From the sequence record PQ493298: a stretch of 64,000 nucleotides of DNA; one strand, 5' to 3'. Each line of letters starts with the position of its first letter. The stretch's first letter is position 1. Made by a program: the position numbers and the translations under genes. The stretch is from Escherichia phage EPIMAM01. Shown here piece after piece: positions 17,478 through 63,629 of this stretch. The notes beneath the pieces were generated by a model. That model was not told the origin of the DNA and ran no database searches. It was given only the letters and a program-made list of their open reading frames with translations.

Positions 17478-17642
17478 TTACTCTTCTTTTTCTTTAGATT
17501 CCTCTTTTTTCTTTTTAGGAATCTGTTCAGGACCTTTATTTACTACAGCACCTGACGTTGTTCCAGTGGAGATATTTTCAGGATTACCACCTGAATCTCC
17601 AGCTACCATATCTTCTTTAATAAATTCTTTATATGTTTTCAT
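17478..17642 (-). CDS. small ORF with internal-protein-like capsid targeting N-terminus
   Basis: 54-aa ORF below track cutoff; N-terminus MKTYKEFIKE resembles the IP CTS MKTYQEFI; GAGG SD; stop 2 nt before the gene 61 ATG. Confidence 0.4.
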   Translation of the reverse strand: MKTYKEFIKEDMVAGDSGGNPENISTGTTSGAVVNKGPEQIPKKKKEESKEKEE

Positions 17643-21899: not shown

Positions 21900-22748
21900 T
21901 TAATCAACTGCTATTGGATGAATAGCATTAAACTTATGAAATGCTTCTGATTTTTCTTTGCGCGAAACACACATGCGAAGAACCTTTAATGGCTCATCTT
22001 CTTCACCCAACGATTTTCTCTTTTCAATATTCGATGTTTTCCAACGAGCTTGCTCTGGAAACTCTCTATTGATTTGCTCAAGAGCTCTATTATGTTTTGA
22101 ATTACTACGAATTGAACTGCACCCGCCCGGAGCTTGCGCTTTTCCAGATACAACCAGATATTTGAACAGGGCCAAATGCGGATAACCTTGATTAATTAAA
22201 TTGAGAAATGCATACATATCTTCGCATAAATCAATTTTTCCATACCCAATTTGTTCTGTTGTAAGTTTCCCGAGGTCATACCAAGTATTCGTGAATCCAT
22301 ATGAATTTTCACGATAATTACCCCAAGATGAAGTAATTTTAAAAATTGGTAAACGAGCATGACCATGATAATACCCGCAATCCATGGCATCTTCAACGTA
22401 TTGAATCAATTCATAGAACTGTTCACGAGTTAACTGATTAATTTTATCTACGCAGCGACGATCATCTTTCTTTCGCATTGAACTCATACGAATAGTAGTA
22501 TCATCATCAATCATCCAAATTCGTTGACCTGCATACATATCAGTAATTGCTTTACGAGTACCAGCAATTCCATTAACATCATCAGGAATAGTTATAATTT
22601 TGGCTCTAGACCCGTAAGCGTCATAATAAGCTTTTTCTTCGTGTTCACGTACTACAATATGCGGTTCATAATCAGATGGAAACATATCAAGGGCAGAAAC
22701 TGCCCCTACGCGTTGATAGCTTGGAATTACGAATTGAATCATTTCCAC
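21900..22748 (-). CDS. putative GT-A fold glycosyltransferase (DNA glucosylation)
   Basis: Track ORF 282 aa; VIPSYQR and DDD (DxD) motifs; sits where T4 carries beta-gt but does not resemble it. Confidence 0.55.
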   Translation of the reverse strand: MEMIQFVIPSYQRVGAVSALDMFPSDYEPHIVVREHEEKAYYDAYGSRAKIITIPDDVNGIAGTRKAITDMYAGQRIWMIDDDTTIRMSSMRKKDDRRCVDKINQLTREQFYELIQYVEDAMDCGYYHGHARLPIFKITSSWGNYRENSYGFTNTWYDLGKLTTEQIGYGKIDLCEDMYAFLNLINQGYPHLALFKYLVVSGKAQAPGGCSSIRSNSKHNRALEQINREFPEQARWKTSNIEKRKSLGEEDEPLKVLRMCVSRKEKSEAFHKFNAIHPIAVD

Positions 22749-34149: not shown

Positions 34150-35350
34150 ATTTTGTAATAATGTCAAACTGTTCTTTAAAGCAGAAGCTTGAATCTTGAT
34201 GCTGATACAAAAATTCATAAGCTTTTTCGCGTTCACGGTCATAAAGATTTCGGTCAGATGACAGTTCTTTAATACGTTCAAATGTTGATTCCATGTCATT
34301 TTCATCAAACCAAACGATACCGCTATCATGAGAAATTAACGGAGTATTATCAACACGGAATTTTAAATTTTCGCCAGTAGATTTCCAAAATACTGGAATT
34401 GTTCCACATGCACCAAGCTCGAGATGAGTATATTCTAAAGAACGTTGTAGATATTTTTTATCCAACTTACTCAGCTGATAACCAAATCCGGATTTACTCA
34501 TGCGTTCAAGCATTTCGCTATTTACATAACGGTCAAGAATTTGCGTTGGCAAATTAGGAGCAATTTTAATTTGGTCTACTTGATGAAGACGATAATACTC
34601 ATATGGAATTCCTTTTTCTTTAATAGGAATGAACGCTGGAGAACGTTCCAGACCTTCCATAATAGTACTTAATCCCGCAGGTTTAAGATGTTTTTCGTGA
34701 AAATCAAACATCTGATAAAAACCTTTCCATGTAGTCGTACGACCGATCCAACGGTTGACATTCATATTAATTTCAGAAACATCTTTCCAGTAGGTTGATC
34801 GAACCTTCGCAATATCCATAGGAGGCTGAAAGTTGTATACAGTCGGTGCTTCTTCAATATCATCAAATAGAGAAACTGTTTCTGGATACCATTCTTTCAT
34901 CAGAACTTTATTAAAATCACCATTATCAGAATGACTAAAAATAACATCAGCTCGACGAACAGTTTCTTCTAATCCCAAATTTCGGCGCAAAGAAAGAGAA
35001 GAATGGTCATGTTGATAAACTACAACACGAACCGAAGGTTTAATGTTATCAATAATTTTTTTATAGTTATTAATAGTGTCTTCTTCGACTGAAGTAGCAG
35101 GAACTGAATTGATAATTAGAATATCACAATCATTTACCAGCTTAAGTGTTTTATCGTATTCTTTTGTCAATAAAACCGGAATTGAAAATGATTTATAATC
35201 ATGCGCGCAATTACGAGTAAATGATTTATCTTTAGCATAAACCAAAGTTACTTCATGACCATTTTTAATAAACCAATCACGCTGCTCGAGAGAAAATTTA
35301 GTTACGCCGCAACCTTCAAGACCTCGAGCCATAAAAATGCATACTTTCAT
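34148..35350 (-). CDS. a-gt: DNA alpha-glucosyltransferase
   Basis: Track ORF 400 aa; N-terminus and length match T4 alpha-gt. Confidence 0.85.
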   Translation of the reverse strand: MKVCIFMARGLEGCGVTKFSLEQRDWFIKNGHEVTLVYAKDKSFTRNCAHDYKSFSIPVLLTKEYDKTLKLVNDCDILIINSVPATSVEEDTINNYKKIIDNIKPSVRVVVYQHDHSSLSLRRNLGLEETVRRADVIFSHSDNGDFNKVLMKEWYPETVSLFDDIEEAPTVYNFQPPMDIAKVRSTYWKDVSEINMNVNRWIGRTTTWKGFYQMFDFHEKHLKPAGLSTIMEGLERSPAFIPIKEKGIPYEYYRLHQVDQIKIAPNLPTQILDRYVNSEMLERMSKSGFGYQLSKLDKKYLQRSLEYTHLELGACGTIPVFWKSTGENLKFRVDNTPLISHDSGIVWFDENDMESTFERIKELSSDRNLYDREREKAYEFLYQHQDSSFCFKEQFDIITK

Positions 35351-49881: not shown

Positions 49882-50868
49882 TTATTTCAGAAGAGTAACC
49901 TCAGCAATTTCTTCCCAACCGTTTTTGTCGGTCATAATAAAGTCAGCAAGATAAAGAGCAGTACGCAGTGAAACATTGCGTAAACGATTAACATTAACTT
50001 TCATCCATGATAATGCTTTATAAGTTTCTTCATCAGAAAGACCGCGCTTTTGCATCATGTCAGTTGAAAGAATAACATCTTCAACCCTGACCATAATTTC
50101 TTCATTAGTGTGAACACCCAAATCTAAATAAACCGAGCGGGACACTAATGCTTGTAAATGTGGAGCAAGTTTAGTACCACGGTCTAATTCGCGGTCAATG
50201 TCAACGTTTGTGATAAAAACAATCGTTCCTTTAAATTCAAACTCACGCTCAATGCCTTTTTCTTCTAAGTAAGAAGACGCAGTGCTCCAGCAGACTTTAC
50301 GGGTCTCTCCAGTGTCCAGAGCGGCTTTTAGAAGATTAAGAATGTCCATATCAGAGAAAACATCCACATCATCAATTAAAAGGACAGAATTCTCTTCACG
50401 ATTATTCCAGAGCTGCTCATAAAGACCAATACCAGAGATTTTACCGTTAATGCTTTTATATTCAATGTATCCAATATCATTTGCTTTATTTAAAGCTTTA
50501 TCTAAAGAATACGTTTTACCAATACCTGCCGCACCAGAGATAATCAATGAACGAATATTTCCGTTAATAATACCATTCGTCATCATTCCCATAACATTAA
50601 ATCTTTTATTAATGCGGGTTTTCATATCTTCATATGATTCTTTAACTTCTTCAACTTTTACACCATCATATGAAATGTCTGATTTGTAAACCCAAACACC
50701 GCGACGTTTACCATCAATTTCAACAAAAACTTTACCATCTCCTTGTGCATCTACCGGAGCATTATCTGGGAACCATTCGCCTAAGAGCTCAAAAGTTCCA
50801 GAGATTTCTTTACCGAAGTAGATACCCTTATTGATAGTTACAGTTTTCATTTTATTCTCCAATTTCAC
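49882..50868 (-). CDS. putative AAA+/P-loop ATPase
   Basis: Track ORF 328 aa; Walker A GAAGIGKT and Walker B LLIDDVD. Confidence 0.55.
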   Translation of the reverse strand: MKLENKMKTVTINKGIYFGKEISGTFELLGEWFPDNAPVDAQGDGKVFVEIDGKRRGVWVYKSDISYDGVKVEEVKESYEDMKTRINKRFNVMGMMTNGIINGNIRSLIISGAAGIGKTYSLDKALNKANDIGYIEYKSINGKISGIGLYEQLWNNREENSVLLIDDVDVFSDMDILNLLKAALDTGETRKVCWSTASSYLEEKGIEREFEFKGTIVFITNVDIDRELDRGTKLAPHLQALVSRSVYLDLGVHTNEEIMVRVEDVILSTDMMQKRGLSDEETYKALSWMKVNVNRLRNVSLRTALYLADFIMTDKNGWEEIAEVTLLK

Positions 50869-50886
50869 ATTTGTTTTGATAGGGTA

Positions 50887-50917
50887 ATAGTATCACACTA
50901 CTACCCTTGCTGTAAAC
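50887..50917 (-). promoter_or_regulatory. T4-type early promoter
   Basis: GTTTAC, 19 nt, TACTAT; flanked by AGGGTA/TACCCT inverted repeat. Confidence 0.5.
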
Positions 50918-50920
50918 AAC

Positions 50921-51184
50921 TTATTTTAATGTTTGCCAAATTTTTACTGCTTCGCGACGAGATACTTCTACAGCTCCAAGTTCTACAGCTTTTTGGCGTC
51001 GCCGAGCGTGTAAGTCATAATGTTTAATGCGTTTATCTTGAAACCAAGAACGTTTCATTCCTATTGCTTCTGCCATTTCATGAAGCTCTTCAATATCTCC
51101 ATCAGTGAACATATGACAATTTTTAGTTGGATGACCGCGAAGTTTCCATCCATGATTCATTAAAACATCTACGTAAACTGTCAT
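50921..51184 (-). CDS. hypothetical protein
   Basis: Track ORF 87 aa. Confidence 0.5.
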   Translation of the reverse strand: MTVYVDVLMNHGWKLRGHPTKNCHMFTDGDIEELHEMAEAIGMKRSWFQDKRIKHYDLHARRRQKAVELGAVEVSRREAVKIWQTLK

Positions 51185-60310: not shown

Positions 60311-60691
60311 TCAATTAGAAAATAAATTTATCCAAGATTGTTCTTTAATTAAAAATGGCTCAGAATCATATGCCATCAAACTTTGGGTGATTAGTCCTTT
60401 AAAAGGTCCATCAATAAATTCCATGGTAAAATATGGAATTTTATTCATTAATCTTGCATTAGGAGCAGTGCACAAAACTCTGCATCCTTTGAATACGCCT
60501 TTTTGTAATTTGTATTGCTTAGGATAAAATTCGCTCAAGACGTTGTTATTTGCCAAAATTTCAAAATGATTCACCAATTTATTTTTAATAGTTTTTGGCG
60601 AAAAATAAAGATATTCGAAAAGTTGCGTGTCTGTCATCATTGCATCCCAATTACGAAAAACTGCGGACGAGTAATACCACCGATGCAGCAT
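60311..60691 (-). CDS. hypothetical protein
   Basis: Track ORF 126 aa. Confidence 0.45.
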   Translation of the reverse strand: MLHRWYYSSAVFRNWDAMMTDTQLFEYLYFSPKTIKNKLVNHFEILANNNVLSEFYPKQYKLQKGVFKGCRVLCTAPNARLMNKIPYFTMEFIDGPFKGLITQSLMAYDSEPFLIKEQSWINLFSN

Positions 60692-61227
60692 TTACTATTG
60701 CAACAGTATTGTACAGTTTCAATATGAATATCGTAAATTTTATCCATATCAGGAGATTTAACAGGCTCATCGATTATATACAGAATTCGAGAAAGCGTTA
60801 AACCTCTGAACTTGCTACCTCTATTACCAACAAAACTACGGACAGAATCAGTAAATAAACGGAATCGAATATCATCGCTAGAATAACGAGAAAATTCTTT
60901 TTTAATGTGGTCCGCAGAAATTTTAGCGTAAGATGAAGTATTAGAAAGAACAATAACTGTTCCACCGTCATACAACCAATTAGCAGCAAAGTTAGTCACA
61001 GCAATTGATTTACCGGATTGACGTCCACCATCTAGTCGAAGTGTGCAGTATTCTTTAAATAAATGTGGCGAATCAGGTACATAAAATCCACTATTACAAA
61101 TTTCTTCTACTCTAGCATCAGAATGGTGTGTAAAAGCATTCATCAGGGATAGATAAGGACCAGTTAAAAATGTTCTCATTTTGTTATCTCTAAATTTGGG
61201 CCATTCCATGGCGCATGAATTTTCCAT
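60637..61227 (-). CDS. putative P-loop NTPase
   Basis: Track ORF 196 aa; Walker A GGRQSGKS and Walker-B-like ILYIIDEP; start probably internal. Confidence 0.45.
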
Positions 61228-61741
61228 TTCTGTATTTACCCATTACCGCACTTGGGCTCGACCTTATTACAGGTTGGCGGGAATCCCTCATAGAATCATG
61301 AGGTCCAGCTTGTTCCCATGTTATTTGAATGTAAATATTTTTGCCGTAATACTTATACCAGTGTGGCTTCATTAAAATTTTTTCATAGAGTCGCTGTTGA
61401 CTCAATTTAATAGCTGATTTGCATGGATTATAATCATTTTTCCATTCTGCTGGAATATCGCTGATGTCAGGAACTTCAGTATCTTTTATACTAAACCCAC
61501 GTTTTAAGCATTCCATTATAATGTCTGATTGACGCTTTCGCAAAAATTCTAACTTATCGTAAAAGAACGTGACATGACCAGAACCTAAAATAAACTCGGA
61601 AGATATTTTAAAATCTTTAACCCGTTTACCATTTGCCACGTGTTTACGAACTATACCAAAAACACGTGGCAATTCACGGTATTCCGCAATTAAATGTTGG
61701 TCAGCAAGTTCAGATACTAAAGTCAAATTAATACGAGTCAT
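61190..61741 (-). CDS. denV: pyrimidine dimer DNA glycosylase (endonuclease V) with C-terminal extension
   Basis: Track ORF 183 aa; first 137 residues match T4 DenV, then about 45 extra low-complexity residues. Confidence 0.8.
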
Positions 61742-61798
61742 TTTATCTCTCCAAGTAACTGTGAATATACTATCACAATTCTAGGAGAAAATAAACTG

Positions 61799-62101
61799 TT
61801 ATTTACCTTTAATTACTTTAGCTGCTTCGATAGCCGCTTGCTGAAGGTCATCCATAGACATACCGAATTTAGAAGCAAAGTTATCAATTTTCTTTTCGAC
61901 AGCATTCAAAGGCTTGGCCTGTTTACCTTCATTAGCGCCAGGAAGAGCGAGAATACGCTCTTTGTCAATATAAAGGCTTACAAGTTTCTTACGGTCTTTA
62001 TCGGACAAATCGTGAAATGAATGGGCCTTTTTATTTATAGCGGCTTCTAATTTACCTGCACTCACTCGCGCTTCAGTAATAAATTCTTGATATGTTTTCA
62101 T
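61799..62101 (-). CDS. ipII: internal protein II
   Basis: Track ORF 100 aa; capsid targeting N-terminus MKTYQEFITEA. Confidence 0.85.
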   Translation of the reverse strand: MKTYQEFITEARVSAGKLEAAINKKAHSFHDLSDKDRKKLVSLYIDKERILALPGANEGKQAKPLNAVEKKIDNFASKFGMSMDDLQQAAIEAAKVIKGK

Positions 62102-62172
62102 ATGTTTCCTTTAAATATTTTAATTAGTAATTGTGAATATACTATCGCAGTTTTAGGAGAAAATAAACAACT

Positions 62173-62703
<531 letters not shown>

Positions 62704-63159
62704 TTAAAAGAGGTTGTTCATTATTCTGTAAAGTGAAGGACCCATCACATATTGCCACTGAGTACAAGGAATAAGAGCAAAAGCATCCATCTCTGGAATC
62801 ATAACACCATCTTTATTTTCAAAATAAGACTCACAATGGCAATTTCTAAACATCTCATGCTCTACTGGAATCGTATAATAAAATAGCTGTAAGTCTTTAT
62901 TACTAGAATATTTAAATACACCTAGGTCTTCTAGAAGGTCTGGATTATAATTACTAAAGCCAGTCTCTTCTAAACATTCTCTTTTTGCAGCTTCCAGTGC
63001 ATTCAAATCAGAACTTTCTACACGCCCCTTTGGAATATCCCAGCGATGTGCCATCATTCCAGGTTTACGAGAACCGGTAACTCGTCCCATAAATAAATCT
63101 TTATCTTCTGTCATAAAGATAATACCAGCTGATAATGTTTTCATTTTAATTTCCTGCAT
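62704..63159 (-). CDS. nudE: Nudix hydrolase
   Basis: Track ORF 151 aa; Nudix box GRVESSDLNALEAAKRECLEETG. Confidence 0.85.
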   Translation of the reverse strand: MQEIKMKTLSAGIIFMTEDKDLFMGRVTGSRKPGMMAHRWDIPKGRVESSDLNALEAAKRECLEETGFSNYNPDLLEDLGVFKYSSNKDLQLFYYTIPVEHEMFRNCHCESYFENKDGVMIPEMDAFALIPCTQWQYVMGPSLYRIMNNLF

Positions 63160-63629
63160 TCAGTGATAAAATTATTTAAATTTTGAGCATATTTCTTTTC
63201 ATCAAAAATCTTTTGTTGTTTGCGCATCCGCCATGGCATTTCAATGAACATGTACCATATTTCTGATAATATTGATGCTGTAAAAATATTAACAAGTATG
63301 GTTAAAAGAATCCAATCTCCTATTCTGTCCATTGGATTTTTTATAAAAAAGTAAAATACGAATGATGACACAGGAAGACTAATGATATACCACAGAATCA
63401 TAATCTTATCTGTGAACCATTCAGCATTCGTTAACTTAGCACGACCATTATGAATACACACGAATTTATCATCTGTTACAGTAGATGGCTTAACTGCTTG
63501 ATATCCCATTCTAAACTCCCTAATTAATCGTTTCTTTGTATCTTCAGAACAGCCGCTCCAGTCAACTCTATCAACTGAAATGCCATCGTCCCCATCATCT
63601 AAATCATACCAGTGAGTTTTTAAAATCAT
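63141..63629 (-). CDS. membrane protein
   Basis: Track ORF 162 aa; several hydrophobic helices. Confidence 0.5.
   Translation of the reverse strand: MILKTHWYDLDDGDDGISVDRVDWSGCSEDTKKRLIREFRMGYQAVKPSTVTDDKFVCIHNGRAKLTNAEWFTDKIMILWYIISLPVSSFVFYFFIKNPMDRIGDWILLTILVNIFTASILSEIWYMFIEMPWRMRKQQKIFDEKKYAQNLNNFITECRKLK

Follow-up and report, generated by a model that had tools for sequence, protein, structure and literature searches.

Here, we find that Escherichia phage EPIMAM01 (PQ493298) carries no ipIII between ipII and the lysozyme gene e, which are separated only by a short untranslated spacer. The best explanation, to which we assign a probability of roughly 80%, is that the spacer proximal to e was joined to ipII by homologous recombination in the leader/targeting module of a cassette array, giving a virion that would contain Ip2 but lack Ip3. 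The absence of ipIII as such is an already described cassette polymorphism of T-even phages with a published molecular meaning, and there is nothing novel in that part of the finding.

The window, meaning the whole 64-kb stretch of DNA that was analyzed, is a T-even (Tequatrovirus) segment extending from rIIA to the e.3/e.4 region, with the genes near its right end encoded on the minus strand. Its best 25-kb matches are PBM-1 (98.8%) and UGKSEcP1 and UGKSEcP2 (98.7% each); UGKSEcP1 is 100% identical to the window over positions 61000-63200, being elsewhere divergent and not collinear with the window as a whole. The features to which we refer are the following.

62173..62667, minus strand: lysozyme gene e, 164 aa, sharing 94.5% DNA identity with T4 e; the UGKSEcP1 record calls it endolysin
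62102..62172, minus strand: untranslated e-ipII spacer, exactly 71 nt, flanked by the TAA that ends e and by the ATG of ipII
62126..62168, minus strand: copy A of a 43-nt direct repeat, inside the e-ipII spacer
62102..62125, minus strand: AT-rich leader of ipII with the Shine-Dalgarno sequence AAGGAA (62106-62111), from coding-strand comparison
62078..62130: interval holding the putative recombination joint (leader/Shine-Dalgarno and first targeting codons), from the similarity step against vB_VIPECOOM01
62072..62101, minus strand: codons of the ipII capsid-targeting sequence MKTYQEFITE, with an I-x-E site for the gp21 prohead protease
61799..62101, minus strand: ipII, 100-aa precursor, 90 aa mature
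61754..61796, minus strand: copy B of the same 43-nt repeat, preceding denV
61190..61741, minus strand: denV (endonuclease V), 183 aa
17478..17642, minus strand: gene 61.1, 54 aa, outside the internal-protein locus

Two small ORFs overlap the spacer, at 62087..62248 (plus strand) and 62142..62234 (minus strand); we regard both as noise from reading e and ipII in other frames.

In T4 (NC_000866), ipIII is a gene of 193 codons located between ipII and e, and the window has only 71 nt at this position; both the gap and its T4 counterpart had been pointed out in an earlier note on this DNA and are confirmed here. All 71 nt of the spacer align to the T4 spacer between e and ipIII, except for a 16-nt indel by which T4 is longer, and therefore no fragment of ipIII is left in the window spacer. 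A first MAFFT alignment had paired the window spacer with the T4 ipII-ipIII spacer, and a coding-strand comparison of the upstream regions reassigned it to the e-ipIII spacer. Mature T4 IpIII (phrog_5341) used as a tblastn query gave no match in the window (best E, 0.24). A profile HMM made from 10 IpIII homologues and applied, with its filters disabled, to all stop-to-stop frames of 25 codons or more likewise detected none (best E, 0.28). The earlier note had named an ipIII homologue elsewhere in the genome as the finding that would speak against absence. None was found in the window, in the complete genome of UGKSEcP1 by tblastn and profile HMM (best E-values across the window and UGKSEcP1, 0.2 to 0.6), or in the adjacent 50 kb of UGKSEcP2, these two close relatives being the basis for absence beyond the 64-kb window. 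Pfam has no family for either IpIII or gp61.1, and the match of IpII to DUF7412 is below threshold.

The order and strand of nudE, e, ipII, denV, and vs.8 in the T4 ipIII-ipII locus (X04567; NC_000866) are the same as those in the window, and the two loci have in common the e-proximal spacer, a leader with a Shine-Dalgarno sequence, a 10-residue targeting sequence, and a promoter-like stem-loop before each gene. The window differs from T4 in lacking ipIII, in its 16-nt-shorter spacer, in an e-proximal stem-loop that is unfolded, and in a denV gene extended by 45 codons.

The fine structure of the spacer bears on how e and ipII came to be neighbors. The window spacer is of the e-proximal type, i.e., the one that on the coding strand precedes ipIII in T4 and vB_VIPECOOM01, including the leader ACTAATTAAAATATTTAAAGGAAACAT. 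The part of this leader upstream of the Shine-Dalgarno sequence, ACTAATTAAAATA, is of the type present before ipIII in both phages and not of the type before their ipII. Thus read, the window sequence is ipIII-like (e-proximal) down to the Shine-Dalgarno sequence and ipII-like from the targeting codons onward. In T4, a perfect 47-nt repeat is common to ipII and ipIII. It begins at -15 relative to the ATG and reaches +32 (codon 11), its two copies lie 697 bp apart, and it provides a substrate for recombination and sets the size of the deletion. We presume that the smallest published T4 deletion (0.7 kb) perhaps corresponds to this 697-bp interval between the targeting repeats.

Comparison with vB_VIPECOOM01, the nearest ipIII-carrying relative, shows where the two sequence types meet. 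On one side, ipII has 2 differences in 303 nt (99.3% identity) and vs.8 is 99.4% identical; on the other, e is 95.4% identical, and positions 62101-62200 contain 9 substitutions and a 10-nt indel. Going toward e, the ipII side shows its last difference at 62077; on the e side, differences are seen at 62102 and 62131 and are frequent beyond. This step in similarity at the ipII ATG places the joint within approximately 62078-62130, inside the shared leader/targeting module, an interval of some 50 nt that is mapped against a 95 to 99% identical relative and not against the actual parent.

We view the e-to-vs.8 interval of T-even phages as an array of interchangeable internal-protein cassettes: in each, a promoter-like stem-loop is followed by an AT-rich Shine-Dalgarno leader, then by ten targeting codons and by unrelated cargo. 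The array of this phage consists of a single cassette, ipII, with the e-proximal spacer that stands before ipIII in T4 apparently fused straight to ipII through a joint within the shared leader/targeting module. Its likeliest origin would be homologous recombination between two copies of that module, which may have taken place within one genome, as a deletion of approximately 0.7 kb removing ipIII, or as an unequal crossover between two co-infecting phages. When T4 was evolved in the laboratory, three of five populations lost ipIII, the deletions spanning 0.7 to 6 kb and having their ends in short homologies (PMC9391042). These laboratory deletions and the engineered T4 Δip2 Δip3 (PMC12373910) resemble the window in the loss of ipIII from a phage that is viable on laboratory hosts, and the former also in recombination between short homologies, similar to the origin proposed here. 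They differ in that the laboratory deletions are recent and in a T4 background, whereas the window represents a natural genotype of several isolates in which ipII is kept.

The direction of the event, i.e., loss of ipIII here versus gain in the T4 lineage, is not readable from the junction. A history in which ipIII was never in this lineage, e-ipII-denV is ancestral, and the T4 lineage gained an ipIII cassette via leader/targeting homology is possible, if on balance unlikely: the junction is symmetrical as to direction, most sequenced relatives lack IpIII (261 of approximately 860 records have it), and events involving promoter-early stem-loop (PeSL) and ORF cassettes have been described as reversible (PMC2839356). 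We nevertheless favor loss over gain, because IpIII spans several Tevenvirinae genera (JS98-like phages, Klebsiella phages, Moon, TG1, and Muldoon) and hence is old in the subfamily, because the order e-IpIII-IpII-DenV seen in T4 recurs at a locus (L027) whose e is only 76% identical to that of the window, and because spontaneous loss of ipIII has been seen in the laboratory (PMC9391042). The 99.3% identity in ipII of the nearest ipIII-carrying relative also argues against a lineage that never had the gene.

Besides the targeting repeat, a second repeated element is present at this locus. The two copies of the 43-nt repeat, A and B, are 91% identical and bracket ipII at a distance of 372 bp from start to start; two copies are thus found in the window versus zero expected, with none elsewhere in it. 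The promoter-like hexamers of the repeat overlap an inverted repeat, and the T4 equivalents are annotated as a stem-loop/terminator with an embedded -10 (X04567). On the coding strand, copy A contains TTTATT (62162-62167), 17 nt, and TAGTAT (62139-62144), the hexamers being read directly from the sequence, which amounts to one mismatch per hexamer against TTTACW-N17-TAYWAT, the published T4/PST-type PeSL consensus (PMC4122927), with a TG one base before the -10. This promoter-like reading of copy A is drawn solely from the T4-type consensus and the old X04567 annotation, and a generic sigma-70 promoter and terminator scan of the spacer called nothing. Copy B keeps a strong stem-loop (-19.3 kcal/mol; z, -4.25); copy A forms no hairpin (-3 kcal/mol; z, +1.15), two pairs having been lost and the stem-loop having decayed. 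An Rfam search of 61600-62400 returned only chance matches to microRNA hairpins far below threshold.

In the PeSL cassettes of T4-type phages (PMC2839356, PMC4122927), promoter-plus-stem-loop repeats bracket variable small genes in hyperplastic regions. The window resembles these in that the two 91%-identical copies flank ipII and in that relatives differ in which cassettes lie between such elements. It departs from them in that each hexamer is one base off the T4/PST consensus, one copy is without a hairpin, and the crossover lies downstream of the element. Excision of ipIII between these PeSL-type repeats, and not in the targeting module, is in our view very unlikely. A repeat found nowhere else in the window does flank ipII, T4 has such an element before ipIII, ipII, and denV, the T4/PST-type consensus is published (PMC4122927), and PeSL recombination with formation of mini-circles has been demonstrated in RB49/phi1 (PMC2839356). 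However, a crossover in the stem-loop would leave an ipII-type leader (…AATAAAACTATTTACATTTAAAGG), whereas the window has the ipIII-type ACTAATTAAAATATTTAAAGG up to the Shine-Dalgarno sequence, and the change in similarity occurs at the ATG and not in the repeat. Judged by sequence, the two 43-nt repeats would be a ready substrate for loss of ipII, too. At one IMG/VR locus (L007), e is followed directly by denV, as predicted for ipII loss between the 43-nt repeats.

An assembly or sequencing artifact that collapsed the ipII/ipIII repeat, or a relocation of ipIII outside the window, is hardly credible: T4 ipII and ipIII do have an identical 47-nt stretch in common, and the search within the source genome covered the 64-kb window, but assembly error is unlikely because four independently deposited genomes (UGKSEcP1, UGKSEcP2, PBM-1, and Killian) match the whole 2.2-kb region uninterrupted, approximately 650 nt of unique sequence would not be dropped by an assembler owing to a 47-nt repeat, and there is no IpIII in the whole UGKSEcP1 genome or in the 50 kb of UGKSEcP2.

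Recombination in the leader/targeting module remains our preferred reading, and the genotype that it would have produced belongs to a locus known for its variability. The earlier note had implied that lacking ipIII is unusual, which does not agree with the distribution of the gene: among phage records, 261 encode IpIII and 197 encode IpII, and 859 match the denV-e region. T2 and T6 are reported to be without both Ip2 and Ip3 (PMC12373910), and reviews describe the internal proteins as not conserved among T-even phages (PMC9026906). This variability is described in PMC9026906 and PMC4122927, including five internal-protein differences between PST and T4 (PMC4122927). As in those cases, targeting-led genes are here present, absent, or replaced between close relatives at the same two loci, with no difference in kind. 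Natural variation of T-even internal-protein loci is also attributed to Repoila et al. 1994, as cited in PMC12373910.

Across 22 Tevenvirinae loci taken from IMG/VR with lysozyme as the query, the cassettes of the e-to-vs.8 interval are shuffled: each locus has 1 to 4 targeting-sequence ORFs there, and a dozen kinds of unrelated cargo occur in all. IpIII occurs in 11 of these loci, either before or after denV, and IpII in four; in one, e is followed directly by denV. A direct ipII-e junction occurs in at most 37 of 663 matching records, and the arrangement e-ipII-denV with no additional cassette ahead of vs.8 is among the rarer states of this well-known variable locus.

Window IpII shows 93% identity to T4 IpII over 100 aa (7 substitutions) and matches the “internal virion protein” family phrog_7857 along its entire profile (positions 1-100 of 100; E, 4.5e-55). 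Capsid targeting is determined by residues 4 and 7 of the targeting sequence, and processing by residues 8 and 10 (PMC9026906). The N terminus of window IpII, MKTYQEFITE, conforms to this 10-residue pattern with Y4, F7, I8, and E10 and includes the I/L-x-E site of gp21. In the phage collection, 104 records encode a mature IpII with at least 99% identity to that of the window, among them several labeled as Shigella or O157:H7 phages, and T4's own IpII is the less common allele. In addition, ipII DNA is 93 to 95% identical in phages in which the adjacent e gene reaches no more than 72 to 76% identity, a pattern that points to horizontal transfer of the ipII cassette. The 104 near-identical records, together with much lower flank identity at some loci, suggest that one ipII allele may have spread recently.

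Other ORFs with targeting sequences were also considered. In UGKSEcP1 and UGKSEcP2, the set comprises IpII, 77-aa and 85-aa ORFs at the ipI locus, a 187-aa ORF, and the 54-aa product of gene 61.1. The 187-aa ORF, which begins with MKTYAEFLTE, is found in UGKSEcP1 at 50564..51127 (L004:564-1127) and also at L009:414-977 and L061:3040-3603. It is located between the tRNA cluster and the e.x genes, approximately 2.7 kb past the right end of the window, and is annotated as hypothetical (phrog_2280, unknown function). As a disguised IpIII, the UGKSEcP1 ORF was rejected, since it has only the targeting residues in common with IpIII and belongs to phrog_2280; it probably represents an additional internal protein, encoded at a third locus.

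The earlier note had suggested that the 54-aa ORF at 17478..17642 may be part of a different internal-protein repertoire. We instead identify it as T4 gene 61.1 (52 of 54 residues identical), located beside the primase gene, and T4 has both gene 61.1 and ipIII, so that gene 61.1 is no substitute repertoire. The gene lies in the dmd/tifA neighborhood, the so-called anti-toxin island. The N terminus of gp61.1 is targeting-like with a predicted cleavage site (MKTYKEFIKE/D, the slash marking the cut); this part is less conserved among distant homologues and drifting, while the core EDMVAGDSGGNPxNIxxGTTSGAVVNKGPEQIP is conserved across them. Residues 2-38 of gp61.1 can be aligned to part of the N-terminal arm of gp23, the major capsid protein (gp23 residues 57-93; 43% identity; pairwise E, 1e-8), and the predicted gp61.1 cleavage site I-K-E/D falls exactly on the gp23 maturation site L-T-E/A. 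Some databases label homologues of gp61.1 “major capsid domain-containing protein”, and a literature search on gp61.1 function found no relevant paper. These alignments permit a rather improbable reading, in which gp61.1 would be an unrecognized substrate of the gp21 head protease, cleaved to a free copy of the mature gp23 N-terminal arm that might act as a packaged peptide or as a decoy for capsid-sensing host defense.

On the other side of ipII, denV encodes 183 aa versus 138, because its stop codon is lost (TAA to CAA), and the frame continues through the first 33 codons of vs.8. In vs.8 itself (60637..61227, minus strand), an 8-nt deletion in this clade severs these first 33 codons, and the remainder restarts at an internal Met (MRTFLTG…). 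The extended denV is also present in UGKSEcP1; vB_VIPECOOM01 keeps the denV stop codon and has the 8-nt deletion in common with this clade.

T4 without ipIII does not plate on E. coli ECOR17, and plating is restored by ipIII in trans (PMC9391042). Ip3 is a specific inhibitor of GmrS1/GmrSD2, a type IV restriction system of two genes that this strain carries, and Ip2 inhibits a different GmrSD, that of ECOR21 (PMC12373910); the idea, put forward in the earlier note, that presence or absence of internal proteins is relevant to host range therefore holds. Virions of this phage are predicted to deliver Ip2 and not Ip3, and the phage would resist GmrSD of the ECOR21/BrxU type and be open to GmrS1/GmrSD2 of the ECOR17 type, unless another internal protein compensates. 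Packaging, injection, and inhibition of ECOR21/BrxU-type GmrSD are known for T4 Ip2 only (PMC12373910), from which window Ip2 differs at 7 of 100 residues, weakening the functional prediction. Mutation of ipIII in T4 slows the assembly of heads and reduces burst size (PMC9026906), so that some fitness cost of the absence is conceivable, yet many natural phages are without the gene.

The window also encodes two DNA glucosyltransferases, a beta-glucosyl-HMC alpha-glucosyltransferase (21903..22742, minus strand) that is 100% identical to the UGKSEcP1 protein and an alpha-glucosyltransferase (34151..35350, minus strand) that is 99.5% identical to its UGKSEcP1 counterpart. We take this alpha- and beta-alpha-glucosyltransferase pair to be the T2/T6-type set, as opposed to the beta-glucosyltransferase of T4. 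Here, this set is combined with a T4-type ipII, a gene reported missing from T2 and T6. The glucosyltransferase set may change which type IV enzymes matter for the phage DNA.

The set of internal proteins that a T-even phage carries is a guide to the GmrSD-type restriction enzymes that it can disarm on entry, and the value of the present finding lies in annotation and host-range prediction only. A phage with Ip2 and without Ip3 is predicted to fail on strains that carry the ECOR17-type GmrS1/GmrSD2, which would help in the selection or engineering of T4-like phages for therapy. The locus also offers a clear case from nature of a shared leader plus targeting sequence serving as a recombination handle by which anti-restriction cargo is swapped, an idea that is already in the literature.
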